A stretch of DNA of 64,000 nucleotides from Thermotogaceae bacterium (GTDB taxonomy: Bacteria; Thermotogota; Thermotogae; MWEM01). The stretch lies in the NCBI GenBank assembly GCA_030445775.1, contig JASUTC010000001.1, positions 96,469 through 160,468 of the forward strand, read 5' to 3'. The position numbers and the translations under genes are program-made. Positions 16,074-22,796 of the stretch are shown piece by piece (the stretch's first letter is position 1; each line of letters starts with the position of its first letter). The notes beneath the pieces were generated by a model. The model searched no databases. It was not told the DNA's origin and saw only the letters and a list, made by a program, of their open reading frames with translations.

Positions 16074-16541
16074 CTATTTTCTACTCGCTTTGAAAGAACC
16101 AGTTTTGGCAAAGGTACCGCTACTGGAAGCAACACCTTGCATATTATTTGAATCCTTTAATGTGGCATCAAAGGATATTACTCCATTGTGGAATGATTTC
16201 CCTTGAAATTTGATCTCCCTTTCGTTTAAAACGGTTATGGGGTATTTTTCATCAGAAAAAGTCCCATGCCACAAGACTACATAAGAACCGTTTTCCAGAT
16301 GAATATCCATATCAAAACTCTCATCAAAGATACCAATCGTAAAAGAAATCGTCCAGGAACCGGCAATATCATACATTAATTGTGGTTGAGGTAAGGGACC
16401 TGGTTGTGGTTGATTGAGCCATTCCCAAGTACCGTTGTTGTTGAGTACCACCCTTCTGCCATCGTCAGTTGTTGCCATTATTGCAGAAAAAATGACTGAA
16501 GCCATTACTACTAAAACCAAGAAAATGATTCTTTTTTTCAT
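16074..16541 (-). CDS. small secreted protein, function unknown
   Basis: SD GGAGGGTG precedes ATG 16541. Signal or anchor MKKRIIFLVLVVMASVIFSAI, then a PQPGPLPQPQ linker and a beta-rich domain. Confidence 0.5.
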   Translation of the reverse strand: MKKRIIFLVLVVMASVIFSAIMATTDDGRRVVLNNNGTWEWLNQPQPGPLPQPQLMYDIAGSWTISFTIGIFDESFDMDIHLENGSYVVLWHGTFSDEKYPITVLNEREIKFQGKSFHNGVISFDATLKDSNNMQGVASSSGTFAKTGSFKASRK

Positions 16542-16615
16542 ACTGACACCCTCCAAAAATAGTTGATGGATAATTCTAACATATGTTCTGTTCTGTTAAA
16601 GTTACTAATAGTTTT

Positions 16616-18646
16616 CTAATCATATACATCAACGATATTTGCGTAACTAATCTCCTGTATTTGTTCATCGATTAACTTTTCAAGCTTCTGATCATTTTCT
16701 TTCAGTACCTCTAAAAAGTTCTTATAAATCTTTTTTTCCGTTTCTTTTAAATCCGCTTCCAGTGTTGTCTTGGCTTTTTTTATCAGTCTTTTTCTTGAAG
16801 CATAAAGAATCTTTAAAACCCATTTAGGGATACGGATTTTTTTCATTTTTTCCGCTACGGGTTTTTTTAACCCCATGGCTGAAGCAACTGCTAAGACAAC
16901 ACCACCAATAAATCCGCTTAACCACCCCAAAGGTCCCGAAGCGAGTAAAGCAATACCTCCTCCCCCAACAATTGCCCCTGATATTAAACCAACGATTACC
17001 GATGAAATCGCCGTTATCATGTTAAAGAACAGATCATTTAACGGATTTATTTCACCACCAGATTGAGTTAACTGATCGTTGGCAAGGTTATTTTGATTTA
17101 AAAGTTCGTATTTAACCAAAGAACGGTTGAACCATCGGCTTAGTTCCTCTTTTGTTGATTTCTCTATTTGATAGTTGATCTCTTTAAGAAAACCATCATT
17201 CAAACTTTTTAATTCGGGTTGTCTTGCCAAAAAATTGTGTTTCAATCGATTTTCCAGTTCAACGATAGTTCCTCCCTCGTTCAGAAAATTCGTGATGGCA
17301 TTTTCAATTTCCAAGGAAAATATTGAAAAAACAGTTTGGGTATATTGACTTAACGCGTCTTTAAATAGTTTTTGATAGGATTCTTTTAATCTTTCTTCCA
17401 GTTCATCTTCATGTGCACGTAATTCAGTTCTGACTCTTTTTTCATATAACTTTGCAGAATAAGATAATCCCAATCCTCTGCTAATTGTAGATTCCGGATC
17501 GGATGAAGCCAATATTCTGGTATAGGGGAATTTTCGCTCTATCATATCCACAAAAAATTTCCACCGACTGCTTCCACCCGTAAGAATAATCAAAGAAATA
17601 GAATCAGGTCTTATGCCAAACTCTTTTTGGCCTCTCAGCACTTCAGATGTGATGATATTCGGTAAATCAATAAATTCCTCAACTTCTAATCTTTTAGAAT
17701 AATCAGACCCTTTTAAGTCGTGTTTCAGTTCATCACTCATTTTGTAAGTGCTCATCTGTTCGTACAGGTAATCAAAATTTGGGATGGACAATGTACCGTA
17801 GGAGTGCTGACCGAATACGATGTTTTCATTCATTTGCGTATGCTCGGAAGTTGCATGGAGAACAGAGTATTTTTCTTTCAAATTTTTAAACAAAACGGTA
17901 CGCAGATAACCACTCAACCCTTCCTTTTCAACCAGCGATTTTACCCCTTTATTCTGTTGAAGAAATAAATTGTAGAACAAATCATCAAACAACACACCAC
18001 CAATCACAGGTGATCCCCATACTTTTTGGATTTTAAAGTTTTTTATATAGGCAAGATCGAGAGTTCCCCCTCCGAAATCAATCACCAAGACACCGCCTCG
18101 TCCATCTTCCTTGGTGATATCCTTTCGGACAATATGATAATAAAGAGCACCCAAGGGTTCCTCAATCAAAACGGGGGTTTTACCTATTAACTTAGAAAGT
18201 ATTGCGATCATCTTTTCAGAATGCGTTTCATGCGTCTTAGAAGGCACACCACACACCATTTCAGTGTTGTTGATAAAATTCTTAATATCAAAAATTTTCT
18301 GCTTATCGAGATTAGTCAATAAAGCATTCAAAAACAATTCTGTCTCTGTCTCAGCCCGTTTATTGAAAGATAACCGTTGTTTAAATCCCGTCCCCAACGT
18401 GTATTGTCTTCTCTGAGAACGACTCATGGAATGCCATTCTTCAAGAGCCGGTTGCCCGAAACCCAATACCTCAAAATTTCTTTCATCATATAAAATCACG
18501 GAGGGCACAGAGGCGTTGGACTCTATTTTGACATCATCGACAATGGGAACAGCTTCAGCCGCAGTGGAAATACTCATATGTGTATTTGAGGTTCCAAAAT
18601 CAAGCCCAAATATATGCCTTATGTTTTGCTCCAAATCATTTTTCAT
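16616..18646 (-). CDS. non-canonical Hsp70-type ATPase (NBD only) with coiled coil and a C-terminal glycine-zipper TM hairpin
   Basis: GLDFGTSNT, VLVIDFGGGTLDLA and IILTGGSSRWKFF occur in DnaK order, with no DnaK substrate-binding domain. aa 536-593 form two Gly-rich hydrophobic helices. ATGA overlap with the upstream gene. Confidence 0.7.
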   Translation of the reverse strand: MKNDLEQNIRHIFGLDFGTSNTHMSISTAAEAVPIVDDVKIESNASVPSVILYDERNFEVLGFGQPALEEWHSMSRSQRRQYTLGTGFKQRLSFNKRAETETELFLNALLTNLDKQKIFDIKNFINNTEMVCGVPSKTHETHSEKMIAILSKLIGKTPVLIEEPLGALYYHIVRKDITKEDGRGGVLVIDFGGGTLDLAYIKNFKIQKVWGSPVIGGVLFDDLFYNLFLQQNKGVKSLVEKEGLSGYLRTVLFKNLKEKYSVLHATSEHTQMNENIVFGQHSYGTLSIPNFDYLYEQMSTYKMSDELKHDLKGSDYSKRLEVEEFIDLPNIITSEVLRGQKEFGIRPDSISLIILTGGSSRWKFFVDMIERKFPYTRILASSDPESTISRGLGLSYSAKLYEKRVRTELRAHEDELEERLKESYQKLFKDALSQYTQTVFSIFSLEIENAITNFLNEGGTIVELENRLKHNFLARQPELKSLNDGFLKEINYQIEKSTKEELSRWFNRSLVKYELLNQNNLANDQLTQSGGEINPLNDLFFNMITAISSVIVGLISGAIVGGGGIALLASGPLGWLSGFIGGVVLAVASAMGLKKPVAEKMKKIRIPKWVLKILYASRKRLIKKAKTTLEADLKETEKKIYKNFLEVLKENDQKLEKLIDEQIQEISYANIVDVYD

Positions 18647-19740
18647 TTTTTTACCTTTTTAACCTTCCCTTTAAAAACACATCTTCCTTCGTCATCAACC
18701 CACGCATCGTAAACTTGCTCAACCCAATCTCCTTCATTAATAATGCCAAAACTGTCAAAATATTCAATATCGGAATGGGAATATTGAAAGGTATGTTCTT
18801 TTTCTTTCTCGCGAATGCCCATTGCATGCAAACTATTCAAGAAACTTGAAATTGATGATAAAGCCGCTTCTTTATCTTCGTGATTTTCTGCAAACTTCAT
18901 TTGTTGAATGGAAGGCGTCAATTTTTTACTCTGTTGAAGTGATATCCATGGAGTTTTATCATCCACTTGCTCTGTACCTTCTGTTGCAATCTTCTCGGGT
19001 AAAAACGCTATCATTTGTTGACTAAAAGCATGTATTTCGTACAATAATATAGCCAACTGCCCTTCCAATACCTGTTTTGTTTCTTCAGCATCTATCACTT
19101 TCCTTGGTTTAAAAAGGTGAAGAGTCCAAAAAGTCAAAACCGTAAGGATAGCCAACCAAATCCACTGTATAAATGAAATCTTCGGTTTAAGTATAAGCTT
19201 ATTTTTAAGTCCGGTAAAAACCGCTCCTATTGTAATAACAGCCAAACCCGCAACGGAAGCCCACTTAATCATTTTTGTGATGAAAGGATGACGAATAGCC
19301 TTTGAAAATAAATAAACAAAAAGAGCTGCTCCAAAAGGCATGCCTATTATCGGGGCGTATAAAGCGTCTTTAAAAAATGTTCCCAAACCATAATAAAAGA
19401 TGATTCCAAAAAGAACCGCTCCAATAAATGCTGGAATTAAAAGTCTTTCATAGGCGGTAAATTCAACTTTCATTTTTAAAATATAAAATGGGGGTAACCC
19501 TTGGATTTTTCTATTGATTTGTGTAGTCAACGCGTACCTTACACGTTCTTTAGTCTCTTCATCAGAATCTTTCATCTCGCTATCAATTATTTCGGGAATA
19601 AGTTTGTTATTGATCACTTTTTGTGTCTTTACCGATACAACAGAAGATAGATCATTCAAATGTTTGTAATCAATATCTGACAGAATGGAATCTTGACATT
19701 TTTTTATAAGTTGATGATCGACTTTGTCTTCAACCAACAT
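18643..19740 (-). CDS. 4-TM membrane protein with a cytoplasmic C-terminal domain, possibly GrpE-like (weak, by eye)
   Basis: SD AGAGGTG lies 6 nt before ATG 19740. Four hydrophobic helices sit in the middle. The last ~57 aa (GIREKEKEHTFQYSHSD...EGDWVEQVYDAW..GRCVFKGKVKKV) have the same length and spacing as the GrpE C-terminal beta domain. Confidence 0.5.
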   Translation of the reverse strand: MLVEDKVDHQLIKKCQDSILSDIDYKHLNDLSSVVSVKTQKVINNKLIPEIIDSEMKDSDEETKERVRYALTTQINRKIQGLPPFYILKMKVEFTAYERLLIPAFIGAVLFGIIFYYGLGTFFKDALYAPIIGMPFGAALFVYLFSKAIRHPFITKMIKWASVAGLAVITIGAVFTGLKNKLILKPKISFIQWIWLAILTVLTFWTLHLFKPRKVIDAEETKQVLEGQLAILLYEIHAFSQQMIAFLPEKIATEGTEQVDDKTPWISLQQSKKLTPSIQQMKFAENHEDKEAALSSISSFLNSLHAMGIREKEKEHTFQYSHSDIEYFDSFGIINEGDWVEQVYDAWVDDEGRCVFKGKVKKVKK

Positions 19741-21439
19741 GAATAACACCTCTTTGGGGTTTAAGCCAATAAAAACCATAGGGTGTGAGTCTTAAGGTTT
19801 CACCAAGGTCATGTCCTGTGAGTAAATCCCTATAATGACCTTTCCCATCTATTTGAGAAAGATTAACAACTTGTGATTCCTCTGAAAGATTCACGATAAC
19901 CAATACTGCTTCATCTTCATAACTTCTCTTAATAATAAACAACCTGTGGTTTTCAATTATACACTTTTGTTCACCTTTGTAGGAAAGGGATTTTTGAGAA
20001 GTTCTAACTTCTAACATCTTTTTAAGATTGTAAAAAATTTTATGACGTTTGGACATTTCGTCCGATAATGAATGGGATAGAGTTTTAATATCGATTTTTT
20101 CTCTGTTAATCGCCCGATTATGACCGTGTTGTTGAATACCTTCTTCCCAATTTTGTGAACCTAAAAGGCTGTGAATGTATATTCCCGGTATTCCCTTGAG
20201 AGAAATGGCTATGGCATAAGCCCCTAAAAACTTTTTGATATTGTAGTTCTCAGAATGAGAATCATCGGACAATGCGTCAAAATAATTTATATTCATTTCA
20301 TAGGGGATCTCTGTTCCATCGCTATTTTGTTTATACGATATTCTTCCGTGATTTTTAAGGCATTTTTGGACTAAGCTGTCAACTTCATCACGGTCAATTA
20401 AACCCTTCAAAGGCATCAACCCGATTCCATCATGAGAAGCTAAAAAATTAAAATAAGTCGCTTCTAATCCCGGGTCTTCAAGATTTGTTATCCAATGATT
20501 TAATACATCGGAAGATTGTTGCAAATAAGCGTGCAGTATTAACGGTGGCAGAGAAAAGTTATAAACCATATGTGCTTCATTTGTTCCTTCTCCAAAATAG
20601 CTGATGTTTTCAGAGTGTGGTACATTCGTTTCAGTAATCAATAATGCATTTTTATTTAAAGCATCCACAATGGACCGAAATAATCTAACAATTTCATGGG
20701 TTTGAGTCAGGTGGATACAGGATGTCCCCAATTCTTTCCAGAGATAACCAATGGCATCCAACCTGATTAAACTGGCTCCTTTTTCGATATAGAAAAGAAG
20801 TATATCGATAATCTTTAACAGAAGTTTTGGGTTTTTGTAATTTAAATCAATCTGATCAGAAGAAAATGTCGTCCATACCCTTTTTTTGCCGTTCTTGGTT
20901 TCAAAACTTGTTAATAAAGGAGTTGCCCTTGGTCTGGTAACTTGAGAAATGCCTTCTTCACTTTCTAATTCTATAAAAAAATCTTCGTAATCCGTTTTTG
21001 AATTTAAAAATCCTTGAAACCAATCGCTTTTTTGTGAGATGTGATTAATGACCGCATCAAACATCAAATGATAATATTTGGAAAGTTCTTCAACATCTTC
21101 CCAATTACCGTATTGCGGATCGATCTTTTTATAATCGATAACGGAAAAACCATCATCGGATGAATAGGGAAAAAAAGGCAAGATGTGAATGGTATTAAAT
21201 GCAGAACCGCAGTATTTTATGAGAAAATCCGTTAAAACACTCAGAGGAGAGGCTTCACCCCTGAGTGTATCGGCATAAGTAATCAATATTCCATTGATAT
21301 CTTCTAATTTTGTTTTATGACATTGTTTATGTTTTCCATTAAAGCAATCAATTTTTCTTTGAAGGGCATCAAATAAGTCATCAACATCGTTAGGATATAC
21401 TTTTTTAAGACTTTTATAGATGGCTTCATCCTTATTCAT
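19730..21439 (-). CDS. GH13_18 glycoside phosphorylase (sucrose-phosphorylase family; specificity unresolved)
   Basis: RLDAIGYLWKE (nucleophile Asp), ITETNVPH (acid/base Glu), FLASHDGIG and FSLPPLILHA. The start is trimmed to an ATG preceded by GGTGA. Confidence 0.85.
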   Translation of the reverse strand: MNKDEAIYKSLKKVYPNDVDDLFDALQRKIDCFNGKHKQCHKTKLEDINGILITYADTLRGEASPLSVLTDFLIKYCGSAFNTIHILPFFPYSSDDGFSVIDYKKIDPQYGNWEDVEELSKYYHLMFDAVINHISQKSDWFQGFLNSKTDYEDFFIELESEEGISQVTRPRATPLLTSFETKNGKKRVWTTFSSDQIDLNYKNPKLLLKIIDILLFYIEKGASLIRLDAIGYLWKELGTSCIHLTQTHEIVRLFRSIVDALNKNALLITETNVPHSENISYFGEGTNEAHMVYNFSLPPLILHAYLQQSSDVLNHWITNLEDPGLEATYFNFLASHDGIGLMPLKGLIDRDEVDSLVQKCLKNHGRISYKQNSDGTEIPYEMNINYFDALSDDSHSENYNIKKFLGAYAIAISLKGIPGIYIHSLLGSQNWEEGIQQHGHNRAINREKIDIKTLSHSLSDEMSKRHKIFYNLKKMLEVRTSQKSLSYKGEQKCIIENHRLFIIKRSYEDEAVLVIVNLSEESQVVNLSQIDGKGHYRDLLTGHDLGETLRLTPYGFYWLKPQRGVIHVG

Positions 21440-21488
21440 TTTCATCACCAACGAGATTATAACAGAAATCTCTCGGTGTGAACAGATA

Positions 21489-22796
21489 TTAATAATGCAA
21501 ATGGATCCAATCACTCAATGATACAATTACCTCTTCATCAACAAACCCTGGTTTGTTGTATTCATCGGTCCAATGAAAAACCCCTTCCTCAGTTTTTATA
21601 AATAAATGATTAAGAGTTGGGAACGAAATGAATGTAAAGTTATCATTTTGACCATATTTTTCTTTGAAGGGCAAGTAATCACCTTCCATTGTTACCTGAA
21701 AATCTTCCTCACCTTGTAAGATTAATACCGGTTCATCATAGTTTTCCAAATCTTCCAGAGGACTATATTCATCCAACTCATAATAGTATTTAGCTGTTAT
21801 CCCCGATTGAATTGGATAATCCTCAGGAAGCTCATGGTTTAGAATCAAACTGAAGAATGATTCAACCTGCTCCATTTGTTTATCTGAAATTCCTAAATAG
21901 TCCTTTGCATAACGATTCTGATCGAGACTAATCTCAGCTAATCTTCTTATGCCCGGTGCCAGCAAGATTATTCCGTTTACCCCCTCTGAAGTGGTAGCAA
22001 TTTTTGGCACTACTGTTCCTCCAAGGCTGTGTCCTGCCAAGATGATATTGTCTACCTTTTCAAGGTTTGAAGCATATGCGATGGCTGAGAAAATATCTTC
22101 AACATACTCAAAATCAACCATATTTTCAATTTCATTCACTATACCACTCATTTTTTGACCATGCTGTGCGGTTCTTTTATTGTATCTTAAAACCGCTATA
22201 CCCGAGGATGCTAAACCTTCCGCAATATCTTTATAAGGAGTGTTTGGGCCTACGGTACCATCCATATCTGTTGGTCCTGATCCTCCAACAATAATCACAA
22301 TGGGATAACTCTCTTTGTTCACAGGTAACGTCAATACACCATCCAATTCCCAACCGTCATTTCCAAATTGTACGGGTTGTTCATCAAAAGCGCTTTTATC
22401 AACATAAGACAGCTTTTTTCTGGGATCAGGAGCGGGGGCTGCATAAAACCCTGCGATCTGTAAATCTTGATCCACGGTTACAGTGAATTTAAGATATCCT
22501 TTGGTTGTCTTCATGAGTCTGATGTATATTTTGTATTGGTCTTGTTCCATAATATCGGTGTTATAAGTTGTTTCAGGTTTTCCATACTGATTAACAATCA
22601 TATTGGCAGATTGTTCCATTGCCTGAACACCGAAAGCAGTTGTTAACTGCTCATTTTGAAGTTCCACTGCTCTTTGATAATTTCCGTTTAAAAAGGCGTT
22701 GAGATATTCTTCAAAAACAATTGAATGCACATCATTCGCAAAACTAAAAGTGGTGGCTATACAAAAAACCAAACCGATGATCAACTTAATTTTCAT
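21489..22796 (-). CDS. secreted alpha/beta-hydrolase (serine hydrolase) with an N-terminal accessory domain
   Basis: Signal MKIKLIIGLVFCIATTFSFA. Nucleophile elbow GHSLGG. About 435 aa. Confidence 0.7.
   Translation of the reverse strand: MKIKLIIGLVFCIATTFSFANDVHSIVFEEYLNAFLNGNYQRAVELQNEQLTTAFGVQAMEQSANMIVNQYGKPETTYNTDIMEQDQYKIYIRLMKTTKGYLKFTVTVDQDLQIAGFYAAPAPDPRKKLSYVDKSAFDEQPVQFGNDGWELDGVLTLPVNKESYPIVIIVGGSGPTDMDGTVGPNTPYKDIAEGLASSGIAVLRYNKRTAQHGQKMSGIVNEIENMVDFEYVEDIFSAIAYASNLEKVDNIILAGHSLGGTVVPKIATTSEGVNGIILLAPGIRRLAEISLDQNRYAKDYLGISDKQMEQVESFFSLILNHELPEDYPIQSGITAKYYYELDEYSPLEDLENYDEPVLILQGEEDFQVTMEGDYLPFKEKYGQNDNFTFISFPTLNHLFIKTEEGVFHWTDEYNKPGFVDEEVIVSLSDWIHLHY

Follow-up and report, generated by a model that had tools for sequence, protein, structure and literature searches.

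A conserved pair of predicted membrane proteins: an Hsp70-type ATPase head on a dynamin-like stalk and a partner with a GrpE-like tail

What kind of machine is encoded by two overlapping genes whose products resemble, in one case, an Hsp70 ATPase shorn of its substrate-binding domain and, in the other, a membrane protein that ends in a GrpE-like tail? The question is raised by two minus-strand genes, here termed A and B, that occupy positions 16616 to 19740 of a 64,000-nucleotide stretch of DNA from a Thermotogaceae bacterium (contig JASUTC010000001.1 of assembly GCA_030445775.1); this whole stretch is referred to as the window, and bare coordinates refer to it. The original prediction, made from the letters of the DNA, was that A and B form a dedicated pair of an Hsp70-type ATPase that has only the nucleotide-binding domain (NBD) and a GrpE-like partner in the membrane, and the existence of such a conserved pair is supported here by fold, profile and synteny comparisons. 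We also found that the C-terminal half of A resembles the stalk and paddle of bacterial dynamin-like proteins, which shifts the functional picture to membrane remodelling. We propose, with arguments that we consider about evenly balanced for and against, that A and B constitute a self-contained two-protein machine in the inner membrane for ATP-driven, dynamin-like remodelling or repair, in which the ATPase head is reset by a membrane-tethered GrpE-like factor.

The two genes and the signals that join them are as follows.

16616..18646, minus strand: gene A, open reading frame (ORF) of 676 residues, predicted Hsp70-NBD/dynamin-like stalk-paddle fusion protein
18643..19740, minus strand: gene B, ORF of 365 residues, predicted membrane partner with a GrpE-like cytoplasmic tail
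18643..18646, minus strand: ATGA overlap of the B stop codon (TGA) with the A start codon (ATG), read directly
19747..19753, minus strand: AGAGGTG, resembling a Shine-Dalgarno sequence, 6 nt before the start codon of B (ATG 19740), read directly

Both the ATGA overlap and the Shine-Dalgarno-supported start of B had been proposed beforehand and both were found in place, the latter with the additional backing of homologues that begin at an equivalent MLVE... position. The B reading frame is open up to an alternative ATG at 19779, a start to which the homologues give no support. Close packing of the genes is common in the family: among 38 homologous pairs the distance between B and the projected start of A has a median of -5.5 nt and is at most 40 nt in 30 of the 38.

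Protein A was divided into four segments on the grounds given in brackets.

17462..18646, minus strand: A residues 1-395, Hsp70-type NBD with all ATPase motifs (Foldseek, Pfam, invariant catalytic columns)
17045..17461, minus strand: A residues 396-534, stalk helices resembling a middle domain, with a low-confidence loop (model; LeoBC and PF21808 matches)
16868..17044, minus strand: A residues 535-593, glycine-rich hydrophobic two-helix hairpin, putative paddle or membrane anchor (hydropathy, conserved glycines)
16616..16867, minus strand: A residues 594-676 and stop codon, basic segment and long return helix, a GED-like fourth stalk helix (model; LeoBC match)

The three Hsp70 motifs that had been recognised in A by eye (GLDFGTSNT, VLVIDFGGGTLDLA and IILTGGSSRWKFF, in DnaK order) were confirmed, and they lie on invariant columns of a family alignment of 41 homologues that are 23-84% identical. 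Invariant positions in this alignment include D16 F17 G18 T19, K89, E163 P164, D190-T195, D197 and G357 G358, and the columns of the phosphate-1, phosphate-2, catalytic Lys/Glu and adenosine motifs are invariant throughout. An AlphaFold2 model built on the same 41 sequences had a mean pLDDT (predicted local distance difference test) of 82.6 and a pTM of 0.75. Its best 50 fold matches in the PDB by Foldseek were all Hsp70/DnaK structures, in nearly every case with an alignment confined to the NBD (E 1.9e-16 to 1.4e-13; target-normalised TM-score 0.42-0.69), and no actin, MreB or ParM was found among these 50. Pfam HSP70 (PF00012) was the top family in 41/41 A members at E<=0.01, with a best E-value of 1.3e-16, and its match covers only the NBD positions of the profile. 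The model is all-helical after residue 384, and neither it nor Pfam revealed a beta-sandwich substrate-binding domain, a helical lid or a hydrophobic interdomain linker, in agreement with the earlier statement that A has nothing like the substrate-binding domain of DnaK. Pfam and NCBIfam assigned no dynamin or GTPase family to A, which lacks a dynamin-type GTPase domain by this measure. As judged from sequence and model, the head of A is a complete, active-looking Hsp70-type NBD.

The part of A that follows the head had been described as heptad-like and coiled-coil sequence interrupted by a hydrophobic hairpin at residues 536-593. The hairpin stood, hydropathy placing it at residues 536-594; the generic description of the remainder did not, since the PADLOC profile LeoBC matches 24 of the 41 A members (best E 8.4e-11) and identifies this half as dynamin-like stalk and paddle. 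For the window protein the LeoBC match has an E-value of 6.5e-10 and aligns A 402-668 to model positions 326-562 of 601, and in distant members too the alignment is collinear, from about 400-670 in A to about 326-567 of 601 in LeoBC. Further PADLOC matches were to LeoB (9/41) and LeoA (3/41). The Pfam family of bacterial dynamin-like helical domains, PF21808, matched window A with an E-value of 4.6e-4, below its gathering cut-off, and a profile of the A C-terminus compared with PDB sequences retrieved residues 554-666 of the Nostoc BDLP 2j68 (the paddle/GED region) at rank 5; this match is weak (E 0.18) and was the sole enzyme-like one in that search. LeoB is part of a split dynamin-like protein, to which it brings the middle domain, the membrane-binding domain and the GED (Michie et al., PMC4159319), and from this domain content the LeoBC-matched region of A would comprise the same three parts.

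The model is in keeping with these matches. It has stalk helices at residues 384-411, 413-457, 461-474 and 476-508, with a mean pLDDT of 84-92 in 10-residue blocks across residues 381-510, and return helices at 608-650 and 652-664; three helical passes, a hairpin and a return helix would correspond to the arrangement of a dynamin stalk. Hydropathy peaks of the hairpin span residues 536-573 and 569-594 with an uncharged turn between them, and G561, G562, G564, G571, G574 and G578 are nearly invariant among the 41 sequences; the Leo paddle is likewise glycine-rich (PMC4159319). Directly after the hairpin comes a very basic stretch with 8 K/R in 23 residues. Profile matches and predicted structure together indicate homology between the C-terminal half of A and the stalk-paddle region of bacterial dynamin-like proteins, and, the N-terminal half being an Hsp70 NBD, A would thus be an Hsp70-type head mounted on a dynamin-like stalk and paddle.

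Protein B was modelled with AlphaFold (pLDDT 74) and divided as follows.

19456..19740, minus strand: B residues 1-95, predicted N-terminal three-helix cytoplasmic domain, poorly conserved (model)
19114..19455, minus strand: B residues 96-209, four hydrophobic helices, of which the first two alone are universal in the family (hydropathy, model)
18952..19113, minus strand: B residues 210-263, membrane-proximal long helix and disordered linker (model)
18643..18951, minus strand: B residues 264-365 and stop codon, helical bundle and beta domain resembling GrpE, the best-conserved segment in the family (HHalign, Foldseek)

This agrees with the layout first read from the sequence, an N-terminal domain, four hydrophobic helices and a C-terminal domain, with lengths of about 95 residues, residues 96-209 and about 155 residues, respectively. 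In the model the N-terminal helices are at residues 2-20, 28-55 and 61-81 (block-mean pLDDT mostly 77-92) and the transmembrane (TM) helices at 96-122, 128-150, 152-179 and 190-209; G107, G133 and G137 hardly vary in the family, some members of which lack TM3-4. A membrane-proximal helix at 218-246 is followed by residues 249-266 with pLDDT below 50; on the strength of a low-stringency HHalign alignment this segment (residues 210-263) is a possible counterpart of the long helix of GrpE. The C-terminal domain has helices at 275-306 and a small beta domain with strands at 309-362. Its last ~60 residues are the best conserved of the protein, with the pattern G[FY]E...W...Y..FG.I..GD.V....V..G.VV.KG.VRKVR, and G308, G332, G337 and G358 are invariant. 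An exhaustive HMMER scan of 1.84 billion representative proteins placed 246 clusters in the B family at E<=0.001 and 119 at E<=1e-10, most of them 320-400 residues long. No family in Pfam, NCBIfam or PADLOC was assigned to window B, and the full B profile retrieved from PDB sequences only designed helical bundles and noise.

The relationship of the B tail to GrpE had been proposed from an alignment by eye to the GrpE C-terminal beta domain, and it holds as a remote homology. A Foldseek search of the B model against 350,542 PDB chains ranked Thermus thermophilus GrpE (3a6m) first and second (prob 0.92 and 0.91, E 0.038 and 0.099, TM-score 0.36-0.39) and human GrpEL1 37th and 39th, the other matches being low-probability helical or membrane noise. 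A profile of the B tail, deepened to 195 sequences with the exhaustive scan, was then compared by HHalign with 64 canonical GrpE sequences collected from metagenomes, giving a Prob of 64.8%, a P-value of 6.2e-5 and a score of 35.9 over 103 columns; when cyanobacterial GrpE-like proteins (see below) were added to the GrpE side these values became 82%, 1e-5 and 40.9. Block shuffles scored 14 ± 2.8, with maxima of 22.7 and 25.0, and 0/100 reached the observed scores; reversed profiles scored 12-13. The alignment runs from B 264-365 onto E. coli GrpE 88-197, that is, over bundle helices as well as beta domain and well beyond the ~57 residues first noted, and the predicted order of strands and helices in the B tail is the same as in GrpE. 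Every residue-level HHalign alignment shown used the register proposed at the outset, in which G352-R353 of window B align with GrpE G182-R183. On this evidence the B tail is very probably a divergent GrpE homologue, and B would have nucleotide-exchange activity.

The best sequence bridge between B and GrpE is, on these profile comparisons, a cyanobacterial family that emerged from our genome scan, which covered one genome per species (GTDB). It consists of Hsp70-like paralogues of ~514-551 residues, each preceded on the same strand by a divergent GrpE-like protein of 180-270 residues; several of the latter carry an N-terminal TM helix and others an HTH (helix-turn-helix) domain. The genes for the GrpE-like proteins, given by locus, were:

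L062:7354-7896, cyanobacterial GrpE-like gene
L067:7315-7857, cyanobacterial GrpE-like gene
L078:3126-3662, cyanobacterial GrpE-like gene
L065:7054-7701, cyanobacterial GrpE-like gene
L068:6796-7578, further cyanobacterial GrpE-like gene
L073:7167-7985, further cyanobacterial GrpE-like gene
L079:1-759, further cyanobacterial GrpE-like gene
L075:4237-4800, further cyanobacterial GrpE-like gene

Their connection to GrpE itself was clear by HHalign (Prob 94-96%, E 1e-7 to 6e-9), and Pfam GrpE gave sub-threshold matches in four. The B tail matched this family with a P-value of 8e-4 and a score of 28.5, compared with 12.7 ± 2.2 (maximum 19.9) for shuffles, 0/150 of which reached the observed score. 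The cyanobacterial systems are like the A/B pair in that a non-canonical Hsp70 stands behind its own divergent and, in several loci, membrane-anchored GrpE-like protein. They differ in that the Hsp70-like proteins have an NBD and a beta-rich C-terminal domain, with no stalk or hairpin and no match to the A C-terminal profile, and in that the GrpE-like partners are short and have no more than one TM helix, an HTH domain, or both. In domain content only, these partners resemble All4144, an HTH and GrpE protein of Anabaena (bioRxiv 10.1101/2025.04.14.648684).

Conservation of the pair was assessed in the same genome scan, in which 47 loci had the full A architecture. These loci, among which the pair spans at least seven phyla, belong to Thermotogota, Phycisphaerae and other Planctomycetota, Calditrichia, Synergistota, a metagenome-assembled genome (MAG) of Chlamydiae, Chromatiaceae, Desulfovibrionaceae and other Deltaproteobacteria, and Rhodopila. 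The expectation that the two genes would remain neighbours in other phyla was borne out, with B directly upstream of A in 38 of the 40 loci that have at least 1 kb of upstream sequence. An iterated B profile converged on 41 ORFs, all of which immediately precede an A homologue encoded on the same strand. A further seven contexts for which genes had been called have, directly upstream of A, an unannotated protein of 259-370 residues; the three that were checked belong to the B family. Each locus has one A-type gene, and B is its sole conserved neighbour: all-against-all clustering of the neighbours in the 47 loci gave only A, B and antisense shadow ORFs, with no third conserved gene. One Thermotogota contig is fully syntenic with the window, in the order LptF/G, alpha/beta hydrolase, GH13, B, A, small secreted protein, AhcY, PurH, PheS/T. 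No canonical grpE was found in the 64,000-nt window. In public databases the family carries no annotation beyond 'Hsp70 family protein' or 'hypothetical protein'.

Both proteins have an even number of TM helices, which, together with the basic flanks (the 8 K/R after the A hairpin and a KPRK sequence after TM4 of B), would place the A head and the B tail on the cytoplasmic side of the membrane. In the mechanism that we propose, binding and hydrolysis of ATP would close and open the lobes of the A head, and this motion would enter the stalk helix that leaves the head at the position of the Hsp70 interdomain linker. The stalk would then re-orient or re-pack the A hairpin within the bilayer, and the GrpE-like domain of B would pry the head open so that ADP leaves and the cycle is reset. 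It is possible that the glycine-rich TM helices of the two proteins pack against one another. If the pair acts as bacterial dynamin-like proteins do, it would bend, tether, fuse or repair the cytoplasmic membrane. We infer the exchange step by B, the transmission of force to the stalk and the remodelling itself from the architecture of the two proteins.

The TM segments of both proteins (16868-17044 in A and 19114-19455 in B) are also glycine-zipper-like, with GxxxG repeats, and had weak matches to Gly-zipper_Omp, Gly-zipper_YMGG, Transgly_assoc and, at rank 1 among PDB sequences, a segment of the phage cargo protein gp45. Segments of this kind are compatible with tight TM-TM packing or with channel-like assemblies.

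A number of observations weigh against the remodelling machine as proposed. In Pfam, the PF00012 (HSP70) score of the window protein, 17.0 bits, is below the gathering threshold of 20.6; PF01025 (GrpE) had no match at E<=1 among 30 B-family members, and no GrpE match for B was found in NCBIfam or in the profile search of PDB sequences. The Foldseek E-values of B against GrpE are not significant alone and the TM-scores are low. With a shallower profile of 47 B tails, HHalign gave P-values of 0.21 against 3 GrpE sequences and 0.16 against 64, and in the latter comparison 23/150 block shuffles scored as well; significance was reached solely with the cyanobacterial bridge family or the 195-sequence B profile. 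E. coli Arg183, a residue through which GrpE contacts DnaK, is not conserved, the Arg position being variable across the B family. On the side of A, the dynamin-like assignment of the tail consists of the PADLOC profiles and one sub-threshold Pfam match, and PF21808 was found in 1/41 A members at E<=0.01. A occurs without B at two loci (L006 and L026), at the second of which the upstream gene is an unrelated AI-2E transporter. The pair has no linked J-domain partner in the loci inspected, the sole DnaJ gene seen being 7 kb away in one locus.

Three other explanations of the same data were considered. The one that survives best, which we nevertheless regard as unlikely, is that A and B form an anti-phage or conflict module, an ATP-gated membrane effector related to LeoABC/DynA that would seal or permeabilise the membrane via its glycine-zipper hairpins. 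LeoBC, LeoB and LeoA, the sole significant library matches of the A tail, are indeed PADLOC defence models, but the GTPase components of the Leo system are absent and B matches no PADLOC model. Likewise, the distribution of the pair is patchy over distant phyla and its flanks are variable, yet in the eight contexts inspected these flanks were housekeeping or miscellaneous genes with no integrases, toxin domains or known defence genes among them, and in Thermotogota the pair lies within a conserved housekeeping block (LptFG, GH13, AhcY, PurH, PheST). Dedicated HSP70 and GrpE pairs are known in GTPase-centred conflict systems (PMC7159879), DynA is reported to need membrane binding for its role in phage defence (PMC12998192), and glycine-zipper-like TM segments are present in both A and B. 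A second PADLOC candidate, PDC-M61, was rejected: the matches to PDC-M61B are weak and restricted to stretches of NBD motifs (E 1e-3 to 7e-3 in 10 A members inspected individually; best 1.8e-5 across the 41), and the B family matches no PDC-M61 model. The pair is neither the PADLOC Leo system nor PDC-M61.

It is improbable that the pair is instead a membrane-anchored, actin-like filament system of the MreB/ParM type, in which the A head would polymerise, B would serve as an adaptor and the likeness to GrpE would be convergent. Pfam MreB_Mbl does match 30/41 A members (ParM_N, Alp7A and Salactin match a few), but HSP70 is the top family with the best E-value in all 41, and the best 50 fold matches are all Hsp70, with no actin, MreB or ParM. 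The lack of a Pfam GrpE match and the non-significant HHalign result with the shallower B profile would suit convergence; they are set against a deep-profile GrpE match far above the shuffles and against GrpE at the top of the B fold search. Equally improbable is a client-specific chaperone for membrane-protein insertion or extraction, with the stalk as client clamp and B as exchange factor: the logic of an Hsp70 NBD with a GrpE-like partner and the embedding of both proteins in the membrane would suit it, but the beta-sandwich substrate-binding domain, hydrophobic interdomain linker and linked J-domain protein are missing, the A stalk is homologous to dynamin-like stalks and not to chaperone client-binding domains, and no client gene is conserved next to the pair.

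The remodelling machine that we favour can be placed between two familiar systems. With DnaK-GrpE it shares the Hsp70 NBD fold and all catalytic motifs in the A head, and a B C-terminus that aligns to the bundle helices and beta domain of GrpE, its best fold match. The grpE and dnaK genes are often adjacent, as are A and B. Unlike DnaK-GrpE, the pair has no substrate-binding domain, lid or linked J protein and both of its proteins are predicted to be integral to the membrane; B has an extra N-terminal domain and 2-4 TM helices that GrpE does not, the window proteins fall below the Pfam thresholds for GrpE and HSP70, and R183 is not conserved. With bacterial dynamin-like proteins (LeoA/LeoBC of enterotoxigenic E. 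coli, PMC4159319; Nostoc BDLP1, 2J68/2J69; B. subtilis DynA) the pair shares a C-terminal region of ~270 residues in A that matches Leo profiles, a helical stalk with a hairpin at its tip, and a glycine-rich hydrophobic paddle like that of LeoA (PMC4159319). It differs from them in that the GTPase domain is replaced by an Hsp70-type ATPase, in that there is no second tandem or fused dynamin-like gene, and in having a GrpE-like membrane partner, to which nothing corresponds in dynamins, since these do not require an exchange factor. The head of the pair would accordingly work as DnaK-GrpE does, and its membrane part as a dynamin-like protein does.

A third comparison is with the GAP1-N2 GTPase-centred conflict systems, which contain, besides HSP70 and GrpE, a protein consisting of the HSP70 domain only (Kaur et al. 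2020, PMC7159879). Here too an Hsp70/GrpE pair has a dedicated role apart from general proteostasis, and one Hsp70 has no peptide-binding domain. They are, in contrast, multi-gene systems of Actinobacteria and Firmicutes with GTPases, FNIII-repeat proteins and DnaJ-fused proteins, none of which is linked to A and B, and the main text of that study does not contain the word 'dynamin' and hence mentions no dynamin-like stalk (PMC7159879).

The A/B pair is not a strict member of the Hsp70 chaperones (no substrate-binding domain), of the dynamins (no GTPase) or of GrpE (no curated-profile match). The original prediction had recognised no named system in it, and we too found no Pfam, NCBIfam or PADLOC model that covers an Hsp70-dynamin fusion combined with a GrpE-like protein; a full-text literature search, incomplete in coverage, yielded no description of such a fusion or of the A/B pair. 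We class its novelty as a new combination of known modules together with a new membrane-embedded form of GrpE.

Several features of the individual loci may be recorded here. Upstream of B in the window is a gene of the GH13 alpha-amylase family (19730-21514), whose last 11 nt run into the start of B. Since every gene between 9809 and 22796 is encoded on the minus strand, GH13, B and A could be translated one after another. The syntenic relative (L167) shows no such overlap; there the GH13 gene abuts B. Downstream of A by 60 nt the window encodes a protein of 160 residues (16074-16556, minus strand) with a signal-peptide-like N-terminus, a PQ-rich linker and no Pfam family. Close Thermotogota relatives have a gene of about this length after A (160 residues in L003, 155 in L167), which is not the case in other phyla. 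A paralogue branch of A in Thermotogaceae (L004:806-2833 and L006:6838-8865; 36-37% identity) has the full architecture and no B upstream; at L006 there is instead a divergently transcribed multi-TM protein of 242 residues (L006:5992-6720, minus strand) with no Pfam match. In Dethiosulfovibrio salsuginis the A homologue shares 14 nt at its 3' end with the gene for a lytic transglycosylase of 200 residues (L163:9946-10548; SLT domain, E 6.7e-9), an arrangement seen in this one genome alone, and a FlgT_N-like gene is located upstream.

Variation in B was also noted. Two termite-gut Deltaproteobacteria MAGs have longer ORFs for the B homologue, of 643 residues (L042:4361-6292) and 585 residues (L044:6163-7920), whose extensions contain extra predicted N-terminal TM helices and no Pfam domain; these could be real fusions or over-extended ORF calls. 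The longer B homologues at L018 and L027, like those at L042 and L044, have no Pfam domain, so fusion partners gave no functional hint. The N-terminal sequence of window B has no HPD motif, and Pfam DnaJ matched none of 30 B proteins.

To our knowledge, Hsp70 NBDs and GrpE occur almost solely as a protein-folding engine and its exchange factor, and dynamin-like stalks only with GTPase heads. An Hsp70 head on a dynamin-like stalk, served by a tethered GrpE-like domain, would mean that two mechanochemical systems have exchanged domains in nature, and Hsp70 heads release ADP slowly, so that such a system would have needed its own GrpE-derived exchange factor in the same membrane. We tentatively suggest, with somewhat more doubt than conviction, that the family is an 'ATP-powered dynamin', a widespread and hitherto unnoticed class of bacterial mechanoenzymes in which the GTPase head has been replaced by an Hsp70 NBD with a GrpE-derived exchange factor of its own. 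If this is true, the dynamin stalk and paddle is a mechanical unit that can be moved between proteins and run by a nucleotide switch of unrelated origin, and the Hsp70-GrpE cycle is used for work besides protein folding. The pair would extend GrpE-type exchange factors to integral membrane proteins, and its architecture would surprise chaperone and dynamin specialists alike, whatever is made of a function that we infer. It offers a first functional handle on a family so far annotated as Hsp70-like or hypothetical, and cultured carriers, among them Dethiosulfovibrio salsuginis, Thiocystis violacea, Thiobaca trueperi and Allochromatium palmeri, allow the pair to be studied; it could reveal how nucleotide-driven lobe motions become work on a bilayer.

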